A program made the translations under genes and the position numbers. The notes below the pieces were generated by a model. The model ran no database searches and was not told the origin of the DNA. It saw nothing but the letters and a program-made list of their open reading frames with translations. Shown here in pieces: positions 3,785 to 57,438 of a stretch of 64,000 nt of DNA. Origin of the DNA: a virus; IMG/VR virus record IMGVR_UViG_3300036768_000279, positions 32,001 to 96,000 of that record; one strand, written 5' to 3'. Every line of letters starts with the position of its first letter. Within the stretch, counting starts at the first letter, position 1.

Positions 3785-4290
3785 TTACGCAAGTCAAGCA
3801 ATGTTCTAGATGTTATGGCTACAAGGATCTATCGGCTTTTCCTCAGAGCAAGAACGCAAAGGATGGCTTATATTCTTGGTGCAAGGTGTGCAATACAGCT
3901 AGTACGCAAAAATACTACGCCGCTAATCGTGATGCTGTCAACGTCAAGCGTCAAGCTAATAAACAAAAGAACAAACAAGACTGGCGTGCGTTTTTTATAC
4001 AACTCTATGGGGAGATGCCTCAATGCTCTATTTGCTTGAAAGCATTGGATTGGAATGCTGATGCAGAAACAAACTGTGGTACGGTAGTAAACTGGGATCA
4101 CCGTCATGGCAATCATGCGGCACATGTGAAGCCTGCCAATTGGCTCCATGGGCACTTATGTAACGAAAAGAACCAAGCTATTTGGCATTCATTTGATTTT
4201 GGTATTTTGTGTAACTACTGCAATGGTTCGTTACCAACCAATAATAGAATTCAGTGGCTTGAACAAGCCCTGAAGTATGCGAGGCAATAA
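3781..4290 (+). CDS. His-Me finger (endonuclease VII/HNH-like) homing endonuclease
   Basis: N-terminal CxxC...F...DGL..WCKVC zinc finger, then CSIC, WDHRH, LCNYCN. Confidence 0.7.
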   Translation: MITQVKQCSRCYGYKDLSAFPQSKNAKDGLYSWCKVCNTASTQKYYAANRDAVNVKRQANKQKNKQDWRAFFIQLYGEMPQCSICLKALDWNADAETNCGTVVNWDHRHGNHAAHVKPANWLHGHLCNEKNQAIWHSFDFGILCNYCNGSLPTNNRIQWLEQALKYARQ

Positions 4291-5315
4291 TGGGCTTAGA
4301 GTACAAACTACGTAGCTTACTCAAGCTTAATCTCAAGTTGTTTTTAGACATGCATTTTTTGCGTGAGTCTAGCTTTATCAATGTAGCTTCTGGTCAATTG
4401 TTTTATGACGGAAGCGACATGAGCGTTCTTCTTCCAGATACTCAAGCAGACGATACGTTGTACGGCGTCTCTAATGGTCAGGTGTGGCAATCGCCCTTTA
4501 GACAATTTGTCTATGAGTCTGGTGTACCATTGGATGGTACAAATGTCAGCACTCCACCATTGCAATGTTCTGGCGTATACATTCATGGTGCGTTCAGACC
4601 AACAAATGATTCTCAGTTTGGACATACTATTGACTACATTAATGGTCGCGTCATCTTCAATTCGCCGCAACCACTTGATCTCAAGGTTAACGCGACCTAT
4701 TCTGCTCGCGAAGTACGTATTGGCTTCGAACACGATTTCAATCAGCAATTCAATCGTGGATTCTTGGAAAGCAAGTTTGCCACGAATCCATTGACATCGA
4801 ATCAGCTAGTCTATCCATCTGGACAGGCACAACCATTTCCAGCCGTTTTCATTGAGGTAGACAATCGCTCAATGACGCCATACGAGCTTGGTAACCGTAG
4901 TGCTGTGATCCGAGACAAGGTTATTTTGCATGTCTGGGCACTAGACGATTTGCAGCGTGACAATATTGTGGACATCTTGACATCGCAATGGCGTAAGAGC
5001 ATTCCGATTATCAATTTCAATCGAGCACCTTTGCCGCTATCTGGGATTTACAACACCCTATCTCCTGAGTATGTGCCGTACCAGGAAATGCTGCGGAACA
5101 ACAAACTGATCACAACTGTGGGTTCCGGCACGCCAGTAGTCTATACGGCCTACATCACGGATATTGCAGCCGAGAACATTCAGGCAACAGCAGAGTATGA
5201 ACGTGCCATCGTGACATACGAAATGGATGTCTACCTAAACGCTCCAGTAACGCCTTTGGGTAGCTACTTTGGTCCTATCTCAACGATACCTACGATCGAG
5301 GATCCATTGGGCTAG
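4290..5315 (+). CDS. Putative tail terminator/tail completion protein
   Basis: 341 aa, before the major tail gene. PAVFIE...ILHVWALDDLQRDNIVDIL resembles tail-terminator proteins. Confidence 0.5.
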   Translation: MGLEYKLRSLLKLNLKLFLDMHFLRESSFINVASGQLFYDGSDMSVLLPDTQADDTLYGVSNGQVWQSPFRQFVYESGVPLDGTNVSTPPLQCSGVYIHGAFRPTNDSQFGHTIDYINGRVIFNSPQPLDLKVNATYSAREVRIGFEHDFNQQFNRGFLESKFATNPLTSNQLVYPSGQAQPFPAVFIEVDNRSMTPYELGNRSAVIRDKVILHVWALDDLQRDNIVDILTSQWRKSIPIINFNRAPLPLSGIYNTLSPEYVPYQEMLRNNKLITTVGSGTPVVYTAYITDIAAENIQATAEYERAIVTYEMDVYLNAPVTPLGSYFGPISTIPTIEDPLG

Positions 5316-17855: not shown

Positions 17856-18704
17856 ATGAGCAAACACACACACAACAGAGCGTTTTTTGACGTTCTTACG
17901 CCTCTTAGTTGCTATTGGGCTGGTTTCATAGCCGCTGATGGATCTATCTATGCACCAAATGGCAATATTCGTATAGGATTATCTGAAAAGGACAAACAAC
18001 AAATTGAGTTGTTCAAGTCTGCTATAAAATCAAGTAGTCCAGTACGTTGTTTTGATACTTCAAATGGTTATAGGTGTGCTCAAATAGATGTCTATGGAGC
18101 GTATGAATGTCAGCAAGTCCTACAGAAAACATTCAATATAACTCAAGCCAAAAGCAAAACTCTTCGGCCTCCATTGCTTGAAAATGAAAAAGACGTTCGT
18201 CACTTTATACGTGGTTATATGGATGGCGATGGATCTATTTCGTTCAATCAATCATCGAAGTCTCCACACTGGACCGTGAGTTTTGTAGGCACACAAGAAA
18301 TGTTGCAATGGATCAAACAACAAATACAACTTTATGTGATTGGCGTGGGCAATCCATCTGTTTGTGCTGACCGCAATATATTCCAAATCCTATTTGGTGG
18401 TTGGCAAGTACGTCCCATTCTTGATTGGCTGTATCAAGATTCTACACCTCAAATACGGTTGGCACGTAAGCATCAAAAATACCTAGAGGTTTTGAATTTC
18501 TATTCAGCAGAAAAACGCAAATACGTCTCCAGATATCGTGGCGTTGACTTTTTCAAGCGAACTGGCAAATGGAAAGCTGAAATCAAGAAAAACAATCAAC
18601 GTTATCATCTTGGCTACTTTGCTACTGAACGTGAAGCTGCCCTGGCTTACAACGACAAAGCTCGCGAGCTTGGTTTGCTCGAAAGATGTTACAGTGTCAG
18701 CTAA
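17856..18704 (+). CDS. Free-standing LAGLIDADG homing endonuclease with C-terminal AP2 domain
   Basis: YWAGFIAADGS and FIRGYMDGDGS motifs; AP2 signature SRYRGV...KWKAEI...YHLGYFATEREAALAYND. Confidence 0.88.
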   Translation: MSKHTHNRAFFDVLTPLSCYWAGFIAADGSIYAPNGNIRIGLSEKDKQQIELFKSAIKSSSPVRCFDTSNGYRCAQIDVYGAYECQQVLQKTFNITQAKSKTLRPPLLENEKDVRHFIRGYMDGDGSISFNQSSKSPHWTVSFVGTQEMLQWIKQQIQLYVIGVGNPSVCADRNIFQILFGGWQVRPILDWLYQDSTPQIRLARKHQKYLEVLNFYSAEKRKYVSRYRGVDFFKRTGKWKAEIKKNNQRYHLGYFATEREAALAYNDKARELGLLERCYSVS

Positions 18705-49214: not shown

Positions 49215-50296
49215 TCAAGGTATTGCACTATCTCCGCCATCTTGGTTTAGGCGGTACCGAGAAGACGTGTCAATTGTTTTTTGAGCACGCCGACACTAGT
49301 CATTTTGATGTCGCTGTAGCATACGATGTAAACGGCTCTCATCCACGAAAAGAAGAATTTCAGAAAGCCGCTTTAGTTTGTGGTGGCAAATTGTTGGGAG
49401 TGGATACCAAAAACCACACCGATGGTCGCGACCTGCAAAGGGTGATCGATACGTTTAAGCCAGACATCTTACACGTATATCGCAGCGGCTATCACGAATT
49501 CCCTAGTCCTGGTCATGACATTAGTGTGCCGCATTTCATTGAGACCAATGTGTTTGGTTTCTATGATGGCAATAGACATATCGACAGGTCGCTTTTCATG
49601 AGCAAATGGCTTATGCACAATACGGTGCGTCAGCTAGGCGTCAAGCCTGATCGATTTGACTTCGTGAATAATCCTGTAGAGCGTCCATGTACTGGCGATC
49701 AGTTTGAAATTGCTGCACGCTGGAAATCGGAAGGAGCTATTGTTGTTGGACGTTGTGGGCGTCCCGACAATGGCATTTACAACGCCGTCAATGTAGATGC
49801 CGTGCGATTGCTGCGAATGCAAGGATATGATATTCGCTTCTTAGTTGTAGCCCCACCGTCCAATATGCTACACGATTTGTCACGTTACGACATTCCGTTC
49901 TACATGATAGAGCCGACAGTCAATCCGCTCGTTCTAAGCATGTTCTACAATAGCGTAGACATCTATACCCATGCCCGTGCAGACGGCGAAACGTTTGGCG
50001 TGAACATTGCAGAGGCTATGATTCACGGCAATCCTGTTATTACACATATTGCTACACCAAGCGTTCCGGGCATGGGAGTGTTCCAGTCACAAACAGAGCT
50101 AGTAGACAACAACGTTACGGGCTTGGTAGTCAACAATACACCTGGAGAATATGCAGAAGCATTGAAGACCTTGATTGACGATCAGAAGTTGCGTCAGTCT
50201 ATGGGCGAATTCGGCAGACGTAAGGCCGAAGCCGAATATGAGGTTAGTGTGTGTATGCATAAGCTCGAAAGTATCTATAGAGAGATTGCACAATGA
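49211..50296 (+). CDS. GT4 glycosyltransferase
   Basis: LGLGGTEK, DIYTH...GETFGVNIAEAMIHG.PVI, ELVDNNVTGLVV. Confidence 0.9.
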   Translation: MIKVLHYLRHLGLGGTEKTCQLFFEHADTSHFDVAVAYDVNGSHPRKEEFQKAALVCGGKLLGVDTKNHTDGRDLQRVIDTFKPDILHVYRSGYHEFPSPGHDISVPHFIETNVFGFYDGNRHIDRSLFMSKWLMHNTVRQLGVKPDRFDFVNNPVERPCTGDQFEIAARWKSEGAIVVGRCGRPDNGIYNAVNVDAVRLLRMQGYDIRFLVVAPPSNMLHDLSRYDIPFYMIEPTVNPLVLSMFYNSVDIYTHARADGETFGVNIAEAMIHGNPVITHIATPSVPGMGVFQSQTELVDNNVTGLVVNNTPGEYAEALKTLIDDQKLRQSMGEFGRRKAEAEYEVSVCMHKLESIYREIAQ

Positions 50297-51447
50297 ACAA
50301 GATTCGCGTCGTTCACCATTCGAAGACAGTAGGCTTTAGCGGCACAGACCGCACGTCCCAGTTGTTTTGCAAGTACCTAGCTCAGAGCGATAAGTACGAG
50401 CCGTTTATTGTCTATCGCGAAGGCGATCCGGCAAACAACCGCTTGGACATTGTGCGATCGTGGATCGGCGACGATCACGTAATTCCCTATCAATGGACAC
50501 CAGGAAAGAAGGGACAGCAGCCGCCCTATCTGCCGGAGTCTGACAATCTCTACGACGTTTTGAAGGCGATCGATCCACAAATTGTTCACGTCCACAGAAG
50601 TGGCTATACAGAGTGGCCGTGCTTCCGCTACATGGCACCCAAGGCCAAGTGGATTGAGACTAACATCTTCGGCTACAAGGACAATTCTCCAGAGCCGCAG
50701 ATTGATGTTAACATCTATATTTCGCAGTACATCCTAAACACAGCCCTTCGTGCTGGCGGGCCGAACGGCCCCGTGCTATACAACCCGATCGAAATGCCGG
50801 TTCTCGGGCTCTCGCCGGAGAGCAAGGAAGCTGCCCGCGAACACCTTCTTTCAACTTTCAAGCTACCTCACAACGCTGTATTGCTTGGACGTGTAGGTAG
50901 AGCAGACAACTTTGATCCAATCTCATTGAGAGCGTTCAAGGCAGTTGAGGAGTCGTATCCTAACGCCTACTACATTGTTGTTAATCCATGTCAAGGATGG
51001 CATGACACGGTACGACAATTGGGAATCAAGAATGTTCGTTTTTCAGGGCCGATCGTTGATGATGCCGACCTATCAAGATTCTACACAGGACTTGACATCT
51101 ACGCTCATGCTCGTCATGATGGAGAGTGTTGTCCGTGTAACATTCAGGAAGCCATGATGCACGGGCTACCTGTGGTATCACACGAAAGTATGATCTTCAA
51201 CGGTCAATCTGAAATCCTTGCTGAGAGTGGATTTGTTGTTCCTGTTGGTCACCACGAGGCATATCGCGACGTGCTTATGCAACTGGTAGAGAATCCAGAA
51301 ATGGCGAGCGAGGACGAAAAGTCTCGTGTACGTCTGCGTTCTCACTTCGGACGCGAAGGCCGTCGTCGTGCTATGCGTCACTTTGAAGCGAGCATCGTTA
51401 CGGGACAACTTGCCAAGATCTATGACTGGGTATTGAAGAACAAATGA
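50293..51447 (+). CDS. GT4 glycosyltransferase (tandem paralog of 49211-50296)
   Basis: Shared HVxRSGYxE, IETNxFG, GRxGRxDN, DIYxHARxDGE, EAMxHG.PV. Confidence 0.88.
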   Translation: MNKIRVVHHSKTVGFSGTDRTSQLFCKYLAQSDKYEPFIVYREGDPANNRLDIVRSWIGDDHVIPYQWTPGKKGQQPPYLPESDNLYDVLKAIDPQIVHVHRSGYTEWPCFRYMAPKAKWIETNIFGYKDNSPEPQIDVNIYISQYILNTALRAGGPNGPVLYNPIEMPVLGLSPESKEAAREHLLSTFKLPHNAVLLGRVGRADNFDPISLRAFKAVEESYPNAYYIVVNPCQGWHDTVRQLGIKNVRFSGPIVDDADLSRFYTGLDIYAHARHDGECCPCNIQEAMMHGLPVVSHESMIFNGQSEILAESGFVVPVGHHEAYRDVLMQLVENPEMASEDEKSRVRLRSHFGREGRRRAMRHFEASIVTGQLAKIYDWVLKNK

Positions 51448-52106
51448 AGCTGATCACATTCTCTCTTTGGGGCGATAGCCCCAAATATTGCATCGGTGCT
51501 CTCAAGAATGCCGAGCTTGCTAAGACCATCTATCCAGGCTGGACATGTCGCTTCTATCTGGGGACATCTGTCCCCAGAGAGATCGTTCATAAGCTGGCCG
51601 CTATGGACAACACGCATATTGTGTGTATGAATGTAGCCGGGGATTGGCGTGGCATGTTCTGGCGTTTTGAAGCCGCTAGTGATCCCGACTGCGAAGTCAT
51701 GATTAGCCGCGATTGCGACTCGCGGCTAGGGCTACGCGAAAAGGCTGCTGTCGATGAATGGATGGTTAGTGACAAAGGCTTCCATACCATCCATGATCAC
51801 TTCCATCATAACGTACCGATACTAGGAGGATTATGGGGCAAGAAGCGTGACTGCTTTCCAGAATTTAGCATATTTCTTGATGCGTGGCACCAGGAAGATA
51901 GATGGCAAACCGACCAAGACTTCCTTACCCAGGTTGTTTGGCCGCGAGTAGCCAATCAAACTATGAATCATTCTGAATTCCACACGCACATATGGCCCGC
52001 CAGACCAATTCCATTGCCACGTAGTGGTCGTGAGTTTATTGGTGCTACATATAATGAACATGATATCATTGATGTAGAGCAGCAGAGATTATTGTATGGT
52101 AGGTAA
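51444..52106 (+). CDS. Putative GT-A-fold glycosyltransferase-like protein
   Basis: FSLWG..PKYCIGA...IYPGW, MFWRF, ISRDCDSR (DxD), ILGGLWG, DQDFL...VWP. Confidence 0.6.
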   Translation: MKLITFSLWGDSPKYCIGALKNAELAKTIYPGWTCRFYLGTSVPREIVHKLAAMDNTHIVCMNVAGDWRGMFWRFEAASDPDCEVMISRDCDSRLGLREKAAVDEWMVSDKGFHTIHDHFHHNVPILGGLWGKKRDCFPEFSIFLDAWHQEDRWQTDQDFLTQVVWPRVANQTMNHSEFHTHIWPARPIPLPRSGREFIGATYNEHDIIDVEQQRLLYGR

Positions 52107-52457
52107 GAGACGCTATGTTTGTGATGATCGTATGACGCTGGAGTCATGTTATTGGGCTGGCTTTATTGCATCGGATGGCCACATCAATCCTGTGCCTCAT
52201 GGACTTGATCTAATTCGCCAATTGAATGCCGCATTAGACTGAATGGCGTGCATAGTTGGCTTGAAGCACTTGAAAAGAGATTCAACATTACGACCGCCAA
52301 GACTAAAACGTTACAGCCCCCAGCACTAAGTGGCAATCGTTTATGGGCCTTTGTTATTGGCTTTTTGGATGGCGATGGCTAAAGGAACTCTTGGATCGTG
52401 AGTTTCCTCAACAAGATTGATGTTCCCAAGCTTCAACGAAAGTGGTGTAAGGTATGA
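52096..52457 (+). pseudogene. Decayed LAGLIDADG homing endonuclease
   Basis: Fragments CYWAGFIASDG / RFNITTAKTKTLQPP / FVIGFLDGDG* / DVPKLQRKW, with stops, a frameshift and deletions. Confidence 0.85.
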
Positions 52458-53521
52458 TTCGTAAGGGATATTCATTTGACGACGTGTTGTTGGTGCCTCG
52501 GTATAACGACATTCCTAGCCGAAAGGACGTAGACACGTCCATCAAGTTTGGTGAACTGCATCTTAGTATTCCAGTCCTTTCGGCGAATATGGATACCATT
52601 ACAGGATCCAACATGGCTCGCGAGATTGCCAATCTTGGTGGTCTTGGCGTTCTTCATAGATTCTGTTCGATTGAAGACAACATCAAGATGTATTGTGAGT
52701 CTATTGATAGACACTACACCGACCCAGTTGCACAATATGGCATTGTGCCCCAATCGTATGAACGTCATACCGTCGTATCGCTTGGAGTGAATGAAGGTCT
52801 TGAACGTTGCGAAGCACTGTATCAAGTTGGTGCTCGCTACTTCTGTGTAGATGTGGCACACGGTCACACAAAAGCTATTGGCAAGTTTGTTAAGCTACTC
52901 AAGAAGCAATACAGCGACATCTTTGTTATCGGCGGCAACGTTGCGACGCATGCCGCCGCTGATTATCTGGCGTCGTGTGGTGCTGATGCAATCAAAGTAG
53001 GTATCGGTCCTGGTAGCGTGTGTACCACACGCATTAAAACTGGTTGCGGCGTGCCGCAACTCACAGCTATCATGGATTGTGCTAAAGTTGACCGCATCAT
53101 CATTGCTGATGGCGGCATCAAGACGCCGGGTGATGCCGTCAAGGCGTTGGCTGCTGGTGCTCACGTTATTATGCTTGGTGGTATGTTAGCTGGATGTGAC
53201 GAAACCCCCGGTGAAGTACAAGATGACCACTATCCCTTTGCGGGCAAGCACAAGCTATTTCGAGGAATGGCCTCGAAAGAGGCTCAAGAAGACTTCATGG
53301 GTTCTATGGCAGGCTGGAAAGCCGCCGAAGGTGTACAGATCAAAGTACGAGCCAAGGGGCCAGTAAAGAACGTGATTGCGGATTTGATGGGCGGCATTCG
53401 ATCAGGCATGACGTATTGTGGTTCACGCAACATTGAAGCCTTGCATCGCAATGCCGAATTCATTGAAGTCACGTCAAATTGTGTGAAGGAAAATACGCCG
53501 CACGGCGAAGGAAGACTATGA
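52454..53521 (+). CDS. IMP dehydrogenase/GMP reductase family protein (no CBS domains)
   Basis: [64 protein letters not shown]. Confidence 0.9.
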
Positions 53522-53658
53522 ACAACATTGTTGATAAATCGGCTCTAGATTTCTATAAAGACAAAAGTCGTCCTGATGGCATTTCGTCTCGTTGCAAAAT
53601 TTGTGACAAACAAAAGCAGGAACAATTACAGAGACTAGGCAGATTGTTACAGCCATGA
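53518..53658 (+). pseudogene. Remnant of endonuclease VII/HNH-type HE (N-terminal zinc finger only)
   Basis: [34 protein letters not shown]..., homologous to FPQSKNAKDGLYSWCKVC of 3781-4290. Confidence 0.65.
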
Positions 53659-54557
53659 AAATTCTTGTTTCGTACCGAGCGATTCCTCAGTCGCCCGGTT
53701 GGGCGACGGGTGATTGTGTAGTGCGTGCCTTTCAGGCATTGGGGCACGATGTCACTCCGTACGGTAATTACTATCAGACGCAGAAACGTCTGGAGGATTG
53801 TAACGTACTCGCAGATGACTGGGATCTATTCTTATTTCTTGAATGTGGCGACGGCGATCCAGTCTACACAGAGCTAGCCAACATACGAGCACGTAAACGT
53901 GCGAGTTGGTTCTTTGACGCAGCCCTGTATCCTCAGCACTGGCTAGCCATCCTTCGCCTATTTGAGTTTGATGTCAACTTCATTGCCAATAGCACAATGC
54001 TATATGACAATCTCAATACAGAGTACCTGCCATATGCAGCAGATCCAGCACTACACTATAGATCCTATAAAGAAAAAACACGCGATTTTCTACTCATCGG
54101 ATCTGATAGGCCAGAAAGACGCAGACTTTACGATCTCATGAAAAGAGCTTGTCCAGATGCTAGAATAGATTTTATTCATGGTGTCTTTCGTGAAGCATAC
54201 ATTGATGCGTTAGCCTCTAGTCATTATGTGATAAATGATGTTGCTGGCGGTGGGGCGGGTCTTTTACCAATGAGATGTACGGAAACCATGGCGGCAGGTA
54301 GTGTATTACTGAGTGTGCAAGACCCGGCACTGCCGACCATTGGTACTAACTTAGAGCACTATATTAATTTTCGAGACGAGAATCATCTTTTTGGCACAGA
54401 GGTTAATGGCACTAATCACTTTCATCATATGTTTGCTTGTGGAGAAAGCTTCTCTAAGCGAATTGCATTGACTGGACAACAACATTGTCTAGAACATCAT
54501 ACATATCGTAATAGATGTCAAGCCATTCTTCAAAGACTTTTTCCATATGAGACGTAG
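53655..54557 (+). CDS. CgeB-like GT-B glycosyltransferase
   Basis: YLPYAADP, IGSD...RR, YIDALASS..VIN, MRCTETMAAGSVLL, HHTYRNRC. Confidence 0.8.
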   Translation: MKILVSYRAIPQSPGWATGDCVVRAFQALGHDVTPYGNYYQTQKRLEDCNVLADDWDLFLFLECGDGDPVYTELANIRARKRASWFFDAALYPQHWLAILRLFEFDVNFIANSTMLYDNLNTEYLPYAADPALHYRSYKEKTRDFLLIGSDRPERRRLYDLMKRACPDARIDFIHGVFREAYIDALASSHYVINDVAGGGAGLLPMRCTETMAAGSVLLSVQDPALPTIGTNLEHYINFRDENHLFGTEVNGTNHFHHMFACGESFSKRIALTGQQHCLEHHTYRNRCQAILQRLFPYET

Positions 54558-55185
54558 GCAATACTCAGTCAATGACGATTTCTTTTCTAGTCCAACCCCA
54601 TTGAACTCTTATTGGGCTGGCTTTATTGCGGCGGACGGTTGCGTGCATGAAGACAAGTATTCCAAGTGGCTTGAAATTAGTATTGATTATAAGGACATAG
54701 ATCATGTCGCTCGGTTTTGTGAGGATGTTGAGTACAATGGACCTATTGCTAGATACGATCATATAGTGCGTGTTGTTATTTATAGTAAACAAATAGTTAA
54801 TGATCTTGAACGACACTTCAATATCACTCAACGCAAATCTTTGACATTACGGCGTCCTCATTTGTCAGATATCAATTCTCTTGCGTATATCATAGGATAT
54901 ATTGATGGCGATGGTTGTATTTACATTAAAGACAATAAATATTTAGGTTTGAATGTTGTTGGTACAACAGATGTGCTTGAGTTTATGATTGAGAGATTTA
55001 AGACAATGACAACGTGGCCCACGCATTGTAGACAGTCGTCTATCCGGCCAGCTACTAATTGTAAAACTAACATCACTAAGCAATATGCTATAGTCGGTGA
55101 TCATTGCAAGACAATACTGTCTAAACTCAATGCTATGGACGTACCAAAAATGAGTCGTAAGTGGCGTCATGTTTCTTCCAAATAG
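54547..55185 (+). CDS. Free-standing LAGLIDADG homing endonuclease
   Basis: YWAGFIAADGC and YIIGYIDGDGC; AT-rich. Confidence 0.88.
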   Translation: MRRRQYSVNDDFFSSPTPLNSYWAGFIAADGCVHEDKYSKWLEISIDYKDIDHVARFCEDVEYNGPIARYDHIVRVVIYSKQIVNDLERHFNITQRKSLTLRRPHLSDINSLAYIIGYIDGDGCIYIKDNKYLGLNVVGTTDVLEFMIERFKTMTTWPTHCRQSSIRPATNCKTNITKQYAIVGDHCKTILSKLNAMDVPKMSRKWRHVSSK

Positions 55186-55186
55186 C

Positions 55187-55276
55187 GATGGACAAAACGT
55201 GGTTTTGCGTGATCATACTTATGGCCGTCGTTGTGCTACCATTCTAGAAAAGCTGTTTCCACATGAAAGAGTCTGA
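55187..55276 (+). pseudogene. Displaced duplicate 3' end of the 53655-54557 glycosyltransferase
   Basis: DGQNVVLRDHTYGRRCATILEKLFPHERV* versus TGQQHCLEHHTYRNRCQAILQRLFPYET*. Confidence 0.8.
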
Positions 55277-55937
55277 TACAATCAGTGTTTTGATCTGCTG
55301 TCACAGCGTCGATCATGAGCATGATGTGCTTCTGCAAGAAGCTCTTGAGTCTTTGACTCGACAGACATATCCGAATTTTGAGACCATTCTAGTCCTTGAT
55401 CAATGCCACGAAGACACGAAATGGACCGCTGAGCCATACAAAGACATTCTGAATCTCAAGATTCACGAACGTCCTCACAAGCAAGGATTGGCAATTGCCA
55501 AGAACTTTGGACTAGCCCATTGCACTGGGCAATGGGTTGCTTATCTAGACGCTGACGATCAGTGGATGGATTGCAAGCTTGAATGGCAACGCAACTTCTT
55601 GCTAGAAAATCCAGGCGTTGATTTCTGTTTCACAGAAGTATGGGATAGTACCGGTGGCGTACTCACCCCCAACTGCTTCAAGGTGGGACAATACGAAACC
55701 CATTCGGCAATTGCTGCTGCTATGCCGCGTGAAAATGTAGTATGCCATGGATCAGCATTGATTCGCAAGCTGGCCATCGATTCACTTGGTGGATATCGAA
55801 CAGACCGTTCTCTTCTGGGACGTGAAGACTGGGATTTGTGGAAGCGTGCTATTACTAGTGGATTCACGTTTTACAAGATTCCAGAACGTCTATACATCTA
55901 TTCGATGGGGACAAGCGTAACACGCGGCGAAGTATGA
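55263..55937 (+). CDS. GT2 glycosyltransferase
   Basis: ISVLI, ALESLTRQTYPNFE, GLAIAKNFGL...GQWVAYLDADD, EDWDLW. Confidence 0.92.
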   Translation: MKESDTISVLICCHSVDHEHDVLLQEALESLTRQTYPNFETILVLDQCHEDTKWTAEPYKDILNLKIHERPHKQGLAIAKNFGLAHCTGQWVAYLDADDQWMDCKLEWQRNFLLENPGVDFCFTEVWDSTGGVLTPNCFKVGQYETHSAIAAAMPRENVVCHGSALIRKLAIDSLGGYRTDRSLLGREDWDLWKRAITSGFTFYKIPERLYIYSMGTSVTRGEV

Positions 55938-56905
55938 AAGTTCTGTATGTTGGTTTGAAATACAATTACGGGAAGCATAACGAGGGCTTCTCGTATGAAC
56001 ACATGAATATCGAGTCCGGTATTCGTAACTGCGTTGCCCGTGACATGTTTGATGCTGAATACTGGTATCCAGATTCGTATGAATATCAGCCTTCCGCAGA
56101 AGAAGTGTTCACTGAAAACAAGTTCGACGCCATCTTCCACGTTGCTTTTAATGAATCTCTAGATCTTCCTGAGGGTGTAGCAAAGCTAGCACTCAAGCAG
56201 GATATTCCAGTTATTCAATGGGACTGTGACGCAAGTTGGCGATTCAGTAACTGGATCTTGCCACGCAAGAATCGTGTCAGTCATTTCGTGACCACTCACT
56301 CAGCGACGTTGCCGTTATATGAGCGACACGGCATGAAAGTGATTAAATCACAATGGGCTGGCTCTCCCAAGTATCAGCCCAATCGCAAGCTATACAAGTA
56401 TGATGCGACATTCGTTGGCCAGAAGCATGGACAGATGCCGAATGGCAAATTCTGGCGTAGCGAAATTATCGATCAGATGATGGCCGCAGGTATCAAGATT
56501 GACCTATTCGGCAATTACTGGGATGGCTATACAAACTGGCATGGTTATCTAACCGACTTCAATGAAGTGATCGACGTGTTCAATGCGTCTCGTGTCAATT
56601 TGAATCTATCTAATCCATGGCATCATGGCACTATGCCACAAATCAAGGGAAGACATTTCGAGATTCCGCAGTGTCAGGGCTTTCAAATCAGTACACCAGC
56701 AGATGATCTAGAGTCGTATTTTGTTCCAGGCAAAGAAATCATCATTGTCAATACCGTGACAGAGTTGATTGAAAAGACGCGGTACTATCTCAATAATTCT
56801 ACTGAACGCGAAACGATTGCGTTCGCTGCTCGTGAACGTATGTTGAACGAGCATCAGTGGCATCATCGCTTCCAGAAGATATTCAAGGAAGTTGGTGTGC
56901 TATGA
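55934..56905 (+). CDS. CgeB-like GT-B glycosyltransferase
   Basis: YDATFVGQKH..R, SRVNLNLS, IKGRHFEIP.C.GFQI, YF..GKEII, EHQWHHRF. Confidence 0.85.
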   Translation: MKVLYVGLKYNYGKHNEGFSYEHMNIESGIRNCVARDMFDAEYWYPDSYEYQPSAEEVFTENKFDAIFHVAFNESLDLPEGVAKLALKQDIPVIQWDCDASWRFSNWILPRKNRVSHFVTTHSATLPLYERHGMKVIKSQWAGSPKYQPNRKLYKYDATFVGQKHGQMPNGKFWRSEIIDQMMAAGIKIDLFGNYWDGYTNWHGYLTDFNEVIDVFNASRVNLNLSNPWHHGTMPQIKGRHFEIPQCQGFQISTPADDLESYFVPGKEIIIVNTVTELIEKTRYYLNNSTERETIAFAARERMLNEHQWHHRFQKIFKEVGVL

Positions 56906-57438
56906 TCAAGCTCAATCTAGCGTCTCACGGCGATAACCGCGAAGGGTTTATTAATATTGATTTCGATCATCCTACAGCAGATCTCAAGGCGGACGTAACC
57001 GACCTTCCGTTTCAAGACGACTCTGTTGATGTGATTCTTGCATATCATATTTTGGAACACTTTCGTGCTGGTGAATACGAGCCACATCTTGCAAATCCAT
57101 TAAATCCAAAAACAGCAATGGCGGCTCTTGGAGAGTGGCGTCGCGTTTTGAAGCCGGGCGGCAAGCTAGAAATCAAGGTGCCTGATTTTGAAAAGATTGT
57201 TTGGCTATACTATAACTATCCGCAATGGGCCAGATCAGAGTCGAGCGTTAATGCACCGTTTGCAAGCTATAGTGACTGGATTATTTCGAATGGACAGCAT
57301 CAATGTCTGTTTGACAAACGGACAATGACAAAGCTACTGACGGTCTGCGGTTTTACGAACATCACGTTCCTAGACGGGCAGCCAGTCGCGTCGATCAATC
57401 GAGCCAATCTTGAAATGTACGTGGTGTGCAGCAAATGA
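56902..57438 (+). CDS. SAM-dependent methyltransferase
   Basis: KLNLAS...GFINID, LPFQDDSVD.I.A.HILEH, EWRRVLKPGG.LEI.VPD. Confidence 0.85.
   Translation: MIKLNLASHGDNREGFINIDFDHPTADLKADVTDLPFQDDSVDVILAYHILEHFRAGEYEPHLANPLNPKTAMAALGEWRRVLKPGGKLEIKVPDFEKIVWLYYNYPQWARSESSVNAPFASYSDWIISNGQHQCLFDKRTMTKLLTVCGFTNITFLDGQPVASINRANLEMYVVCSK

Follow-up and report, generated by a model that had tools for sequence, protein, structure and literature searches.

How does the gene of a phage glycosyltransferase (GT) come to be followed by a homing endonuclease gene (HEG) and, behind it, by what resembles a second copy of its own end? The question is raised by a stretch of 64,000 nt (the window), which corresponds to bases 32001-96000 of IMG/VR virus record IMGVR_UViG_3300036768_000279, a record of 147,927 bp with direct terminal repeats (a 148-kb phage genome). 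This record is a metagenome-assembled viral genome, and the relatives with which it was compared are all metagenome assemblies. An earlier reading of the letters, referred to here as the original prediction, proposed that a LAGLIDADG gene had invaded the GT, replaced its 3′ end and left the original tail displaced. Our answer, which we hold to be reasonably probable, is that the locus is a phage counterpart of the fungal-mitochondrial mobile open reading frame (ORF) with a replacement C-terminus: a diverged C-terminal domain of the GT, here called type B, entered together with the HEG, and a clade of five related contigs (the L005 clade) later lost the HEG. The features concerned are the following, L010 being a relative without HEG and GC3 the GC content at third codon positions.

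53655-54557, plus strand: the GT gene, 300 aa (PF13524, E-value 1.7e-7).
53655-54047, plus strand: native part of the GT, the N-terminal Rossmann domain (acceptor side of the GT-B fold), homologous to L010; GC3 0.47.
54048-54557, plus strand: replacement type-B C-terminal Rossmann domain with the two closing helices of the GT; the resident tail occupies 54474-54557.
54547-55185, plus strand: the LAGLIDADG ORF (HEG), free-standing, two-motif, 212 aa (PF14528).
55172-55228, plus strand: decaying first part of the orphan native GT tail, with homology to the GT tail of L010.
55229-55276, plus strand: orphan native GT tail, conserved part, with the GT2 start codon at 55263 and the stop of the upstream frame at 55274-55276.
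55263-55937, plus strand: the GT2 gene, a GT2-family glycosyltransferase (PF00535, E-value 4e-19), 91% identical to the L010 orthologue.

The two tails are recognizably related. When the resident tail (54474-54554) is aligned without gaps to the orphan (55190-55270), 14 of 27 residues and 48 of 81 bases (59%) are identical, and nowhere else in the 64-kb window, all six frames counted, do 27 residues reach 10 identities to the resident tail. Each tail also contains the start of the next gene. The ATG of the HEG at 54547 is embedded in the GT tail (...CCATATGAG...), so that the two genes overlap by 11 nt in different frames, while the ATG of the GT2 gene at 55263 is embedded in the orphan (...CCACATGAA...) at the same tail position. 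The proposed occurrence of an embedded start at an equal position in both tails was thereby confirmed. A homolog of the GT end does lie behind the LAGLIDADG stop, as had been proposed, but it does not start at 55187: DNA homology to the relatives begins at about 55172, inside the last HEG codons. The orphan tail is thus 105 nt long (55172-55276) and corresponds to the last part of the original GT gene, with a DNA identity of 88% to the L010 GT end versus 59% to the resident tail.

The relatives indicate which of the tails is native. L010, whose GT2 is 91% identical to that of the window, has no HEG; there the GT is a single ORF closed by the orphan-type tail, which overlaps the start of GT2. 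Around 13 more distant contigs with the order GT-GT2-GT3 (GT3 being a second PF13524 gene, downstream of GT2) have a single tail each, with the GT2 start overlapping the GT end in most of them, and dozens of related GT proteins terminate in ...LFP[YH]ER[V]. A single orphan-type tail, continuous with the GT, is the ancestral layout. This is what the original prediction had expected of relatives without the HEG: contiguity is seen in L010, and the other contigs, about 13, are likewise single-tailed. Collinear relatives are polymorphic for the HEG: L010, the L005 clade and the ~13 other contigs lack it at this site. The gene order, kept in about 15 contigs with one tail per contig, also speaks against the orphan being the remnant of a separate, deleted paralogous GT. 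The surrounding gene cluster does contain another PF13524 gene (55934-56905) and many GTs, but the orphan is 88% DNA-identical to the L010 GT end, in the same position and with the same GT2 overlap, and an extra GT between GT and GT2 occurs in no contig examined. The tail of the 55934-56905 paralogue gives no match, nor does any other stretch of the window reach 10 of 27 identities, and we find a paralogous origin scarcely credible.

What was replaced is considerably more than a tail. DNA homology between the window and L010 extends over 53652-54047 (80.8%), is then lost, and returns at 55173 (76.7% overall; 88-93% over the first 400 nt), with no blastn match to L010 for 54048-54557. The segment 54048-55172 stands in place of about 356 nt of L010-type sequence. 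The original prediction was right about a foreign 3′ end of the GT but put its extent too small: the exchange took in the entire C-terminal domain (about 510 nt, 54048-54557) and not only the last 28 codons. The replaced stretch amounts to 170 codons, in frame and intact. In protein trees, the N-terminal half of the GT falls within a shallow type-A clade (88% protein identity to homologue P0125), while the C-terminal half forms a pair with the L005 type (support 100/98) on a long branch, sister to homologue P0142 and outside the type-A clade (98/98). For the C-terminal half, a clade of window and L010 was rejected in the loci set by the approximately unbiased (AU) test (p-AU 0.001); in the same set the flanks of the two are 90% identical, and the path length between their C-terminal halves is about 20 times longer. 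Base composition changes at the same place, with GC3 stepping from 0.47 in the N-terminal to 0.28 in the C-terminal half of the GT. GC content is 0.38 in the HEG and 0.41 in the C-terminal half, as against 0.486 in the N-terminal half and 0.475 in the window overall, where a 600-nt GC of 0.40 or less is reached only at the two intact LAGLIDADG genes. The expectation that a sliding GC window would find the HEG and the upstream tail copy to be AT-rich was thus borne out. Both the type-B domain and the HEG have low GC and GC3, below the L005 values although the genome of the window is the GC-richer one. The C-terminal domain at 54048-54557 is a foreign, type-B allele.

The place of the breakpoint was located on an AlphaFold (AF2) model of the chimeric GT, which has a GT-B fold with two Rossmann-like domains (predicted local distance difference test, pLDDT, 93; predicted template modelling score, pTM, 0.91). 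In the model the N-terminal domain extends to about residue 125 and the C-terminal domain begins at 143, which puts the breakpoint, at about residue 131, in the inter-domain linker (~aa 126-142). The best Foldseek matches of the model are GT4-type enzymes (7QSG, PimA, MshA and BshA, with E-values down to 8e-11), and on profile, fold and invariant residues the protein is a GT-B fold glycosyltransferase (PF13524, CgeB-like; GT4-like fold). All 31 of 31 family-invariant alignment columns are kept in the chimera, C-terminal half included, as they must be because the window GT is itself among the 30 aligned members on which these columns were defined. The chimeric GT is probably functional. In GT-B enzymes the nucleotide-sugar donor is bound by the C-terminal domain, and the swapped unit is on that account the predicted donor-binding domain together with the two closing helices.

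The orphan consists of two parts with different fates. Over its first 57 nt (55172-55228), it has 13 differences to the L010 tail, distributed 4/4/5 over the codon positions; of the codon changes, 8 are nonsynonymous and 1 is synonymous. In comparison with L010, the N-terminal half of the GT has 9/6/50 differences over the codon positions (44 synonymous and 13 nonsynonymous changes), a pattern from which the orphan differs (Fisher p = 2.6e-4), and the GT2 gene has 18/7/88, from which the first part of the orphan also differs (Fisher p = 8e-5). The per-site divergence from L010 is 23% for the first part of the orphan and 26% for the third positions of GT2, so that the two match; this part drifts neutrally, in the manner of a pseudogene. 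In the last 48 nt (55229-55276), 48 of 48 positions agree with L010, although the GT2 third positions differ by 26%, which suggests that this block was retained as the translation-start region of GT2. An ORF of 35 codons (55169-55276) spans from 14 nt upstream of the HEG stop to 10 nt past the GT2 ATG. It might, speculatively, relay ribosomes from the HEG to GT2; a frame of such length could arise by chance, and it is not kept in the L005 clade.

On the right-hand side of the HEG, window positions 55229-55600, aligned to 3967-4340 of L010, comprise the 48 identical nt and the first ~350 nt of GT2, which are 88-93% identical. Identity to L010 is clearly lower farther along (68-85%) and in the N-terminal half of the GT (81%). 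The tract of high identity could be either a local conservation peak or a tract of recent exchange.

The inserted ORF matches PF14528 with 26.6 bits (cut-off 22.5) and phrog_4645 with an E-value of 3e-27; its PF00961 score of 20.1 bits is below the cut-off of 23.1. Both LAGLIDADG motifs, YWAGFIAADG (aa 22-31) and YIIGYIDGDG (aa 114-123), have their acidic residues. The protein aligns across both motifs, spacing included, to the structure 2DCH (E-value 3.5e-5), which we take to be I-Tsp061I from an archaeal rRNA intron, with a low overall sequence similarity. In both proteins the two motifs are carried by a single chain of about 210 aa, and 2DCH was deposited in the PDB as a putative homing endonuclease. 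From these features the HEG is predicted to encode a two-motif, monomeric LAGLIDADG homing endonuclease. Among its 438 homologues, of which P0002 is the nearest (59% identical), most have an extra N-terminal domain of about 50 aa, unlike the short form found here. The possibility that the HEG is a truncated or decaying gene was rejected, as related phages carry, at another site, an intact short form whose start follows the same pattern.

This second site is the junction of a 220-aa gene and an IMPDH gene, which in the window lie upstream of the GT. The other genes of the locus are:

50293-51447, plus strand: GT4-like gene.
51444-52106, plus strand: 220-aa gene.
52454-53521, plus strand: IMPDH/GuaC-like gene.
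55934-56905, plus strand: second PF13524 gene (GT3).

In the HEG-less relative L014 the 220-aa gene and the IMPDH gene overlap. L033 and L038 have at this junction an intact, short-form LAGLIDADG gene of 212 aa (1302-1940), which starts at the ATG that serves IMPDH in L014, and the 3′ end of the HEG gives IMPDH a new ATGA start. The window itself contains a frame-broken remnant of the second-site LAGLIDADG gene at 52096-52454. Given the takeover of the start at this second site, start-codon capture at overlapping gene junctions recurs in this group of HEGs, and a takeover by the HEG of the translational coupling from the GT would fit the sequence. In the L005 clade the IMPDH/GuaC-like ORF at the corresponding junction (2387-3652 in L005) has an N-terminal extension of about 100 aa with a weak match to HNH_3 (E-value 7e-4, below cut-off). 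Where the window has a dead LAGLIDADG gene, an endonuclease of a different type may be fused or adjacent in this clade. A third LAGLIDADG gene is found in the window at 17856-18704 (282 aa, 34% identical to the HEG studied here). It has a C-terminal AP2 DNA-binding domain (PF00847, E-value 8e-8) and, with a GC of 0.40, marks the second low-GC spot of the window. A search around it for a tail duplication gave none; the flanking genes are distant paralogues of one another.

Four observations could be joined in one history: the layout of the ancestral locus, a C-terminal domain of foreign origin, the nature and decay of the orphan, and the polymorphic presence of the HEG. The tail of the ancestral GT-B glycosyltransferase would have held the ATG of GT2 in its last codons. 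A cassette consisting of a diverged, AT-rich allele of the GT C-terminal domain and a free-standing LAGLIDADG gene would then have been copied into the locus, with a homologous left crossover in the inter-domain linker (at about 54047) and an illegitimate right joint 105 nt before the native gene end (at about 55172). As a result, about 356 nt of the native C-terminal domain would have been deleted and the last 105 nt stranded behind the HEG, leaving a chimeric but intact GT. The HEG would be translated from the ATG in the new tail, while the stranded tail would survive because its last 48 nt still supply the start region of GT2, with the remainder drifting neutrally. In the L005 clade the same arrangement is found minus the HEG, which would be most simply explained by loss of the HEG. 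We infer the joint arrival of the HEG and the foreign domain from the low GC and GC3 that they share (lower than in L005 despite a GC-richer genome), and from the probable presence of their nearest relatives on one contig. P0002 (the HEG homologue) comes from a single Logan contig of 84,544 nt, and so does P0142 (the GT that is sister to type B in its C-terminal half); the two are probably one and the same contig. In this history the HEG would cleave native GT alleles, and the new allele would resist cleavage.

The L005 clade is where this history is most open to objection, and several findings weigh against it. In its five contigs a resident-type GT tail is followed directly by a decaying orphan tail, with no HEG. 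The orphan starts at the same nucleotide as in the window, i.e. the right junction is the same, and its decay shows as the loss of 1 nt in L005 and as other indels in L007. No HEG homologue was found anywhere in the records of five relatives (one of which is 96%-complete and one a complete genome) by the search method that gave four matches in the window's own genome. The type-B domains of the window and L005 are only 72% identical, with no sign of a recent transfer, and IMG/VR scans with the window HEG and its homologue P0002 gave no other contig with this HEG at the GT/GT2 site. It had been considered that type B might sit in two different genomic backgrounds, which would be evidence of mobility. 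This argument was dropped, since a clade of the window and the L005 clade is not rejected by the AU test, neither for the N-terminal half of the GT (p = 0.21) nor for the N-terminal half plus GT2 (p = 0.41). Because the L005 clade has type B and the orphan tail but neither the HEG nor a remnant of it, the rearrangement could predate the HEG, which may be either the cause of the swap or a later arrival. A metagenome scan with a type-B profile retrieved only the contigs of the L005 clade that were already known. The original prediction had named a resident tail in relatives without the HEG as a finding that would tell against it. Such tails do occur, in the L005 clade, but the same contigs also carry the orphan tail at the same junction, and the clade would accordingly represent a post-event or empty-site allele, not a naive one. 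The derivation of the L005 junction from that of the window by a microhomology deletion was also considered, and the sequences are too diverged to decide on it.

The same contigs fit equally well with an order of events in which the rearrangement came first. Endonuclease-free recombination between a type-B and a type-A phage would have produced the chimeric GT with a left-over type-A tail, as in the L005 state, and the LAGLIDADG gene would have been inserted later at the stop/ATG junction, capturing the start codon. Both tails and the right junction recur in the five contigs without HEG, among which is a nearly complete genome without a HEG homologue. The HEG-specific segment (~54547-55170) fits exactly between the two tails, the related HEG of the second site is cleanly inserted at an overlapping stop/start junction with no duplication, and the AU test does not reject that type B was inherited vertically from a shared ancestor. 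However, this order requires an illegitimate, endonuclease-free recombination to coincide exactly with the later landing spot of the HEG. The unusually low GC and GC3 of both the type-B domain and the HEG, below those of L005, suggest that the two arrived jointly, as does the probable co-occurrence on one contig of the nearest HEG homologue and the nearest type-B-like GT. In addition, a tail duplication beside an endonuclease ORF is a known signature of endonuclease-driven insertion (PMC3630166). We therefore regard an earlier rearrangement as possible, though rather unlikely.

The five contigs also bear on whether the duplication is real. In a viral genome assembled from a metagenome, reads from a HEG-bearing type-B strain could have been joined within the conserved tail to reads from a type-A strain, and the 48-nt block, which is identical between strains, could mislead an assembler into such a false duplication. 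Against this, the two-tail layout with the same right junction is present in five independent assemblies from several samples, the junction at ~55172 lies upstream of the identical block, and the orphan has private substitutions. An assembly artefact is, in our estimate, very improbable.

The closest known parallels are fungal. Mitochondrial mobile ORFs with a replacement C-terminus have been described for atp6 of Allomyces macrogynus and for atp6, atp9, cox2 and nad3 of Glomus (PMC3630166), and in Endoconidiophora partial C-terminal duplications of cob and atp6 are flanked by HEG ORFs (PMC6279837). The series in Glomus and Allomyces is gene core, inserted C-terminus, LAGLIDADG ORF and native C-terminus, the native copy being nearer to the relatives than to the insert (PMC3630166). 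The parts of the phage locus follow the same order (core, foreign in-frame C-terminus, LAGLIDADG ORF, native C-terminus downstream). Its native tail is likewise nearer to the relatives (88%) than to the inserted tail (59%), and has been freed of coding constraint over its first 57 nt. In contrast to the fungal cases, the host is a dsDNA phage and not a mitochondrion, a whole catalytic domain (170 codons) of the GT has been replaced, and part of the orphan is unchanged, as the carrier of the next gene's start. The phage HEG is moreover an ORF of its own, in a different frame and with an 11-nt overlap with the GT, whereas the ORF in atp6 of Allomyces and Glomus is fused in phase, although in-phase fusion of the endonuclease is not universal among the fungal cases (PMC3630166, Table 2). 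Cleavage was demonstrated for the Allomyces element.

A second comparison is with the free-standing HEGs of phages, which co-convert their flanks and sit at boundaries of genetic exchange. The systems of T4-like phages and ICP1 comprise Seg and Mob proteins, 'intronless homing', marker exclusion and HEG islands (PMC2988022, PMC2790892, PMC10448857). Here too, an intergenic endonuclease gene of polymorphic presence is located at a break in similarity between related phages, and the sequence of a neighbouring gene has seemingly been co-inherited. Those endonucleases are however of the GIY-YIG, HNH or T5orf172 type, and that of the window is a LAGLIDADG enzyme. In the phage literature searched, which is incomplete, lacks most subscription journals and so gives weak evidence of absence, neither a stranded native gene end nor a replaced enzyme domain beside a HEG was found, and in the text of the T4 review neither 'duplicat' nor 'LAGLIDADG' occurs. 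The family of mechanisms is familiar; what is new is that the host is a large environmental phage, that the cargo is a whole GT-B domain and that the orphan is partly conserved.

It is already known that free-standing HEGs drag markers between co-infecting phages, and the footprint at the GT locus is more specific than that: an enzyme had one entire catalytic domain exchanged, with the break at a domain boundary, and the end of the old gene persists as a dated relic. If the endonuclease is indeed the driver, selfish elements would offer phages a route for shuffling the donor-sugar domains of their glycosyltransferases. A wider and doubtful proposal is that the HEGs of large environmental phages serve as vehicles for swapping domains of glycan enzymes. 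In this scheme the HEG would cut the common allele at the GT/GT2 junction, repair would import the adjoining nucleotide-sugar-binding domain from a diverged donor and so change the sugar, and the orphan would be kept as a relay ORF (55169-55276). The naive (L010), invaded (window) and invaded but HEG-less (L005) alleles form a natural series for studying target choice and immunity of a LAGLIDADG enzyme. Counting the IMPDH junction, there are two sites in this phage family at which a HEG captures a start codon within the end of the upstream gene and the start of the downstream gene is resupplied.

The locus belongs to a 19-kb glycan island of the phage genome, which also contains the second PF13524 gene and many other GTs. 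Its glycosyltransferase and methyltransferase genes form a co-oriented, mostly overlapping run, at which no promoters or terminators were found beyond shuffled expectation. A blastn search of a Phage GenBank collection with positions 53000-57000 gave no match. In the distant relative L031, a Methyltransf_24 gene (3878-4540; PF13578, E-value 2e-14) is inserted between GT and GT2, and the GT/GT2 junction therefore accepts other insertions too. The spacer between IMPDH and GT (53479-53658) has a short ORF (46-59 aa) with a CxxC pair and no Pfam match. This spacer is strongly variable across the relatives, L010 having two unrelated genes in it and L005 an IscA-like gene. GT3 is a mosaic: its 5′ part (55934-56200) is 63-85% identical to L007 and L009, while around 56042-56130 the identity is only 35-48% to L005 and 27-45% to L010, which points to further recombination breakpoints within the island.

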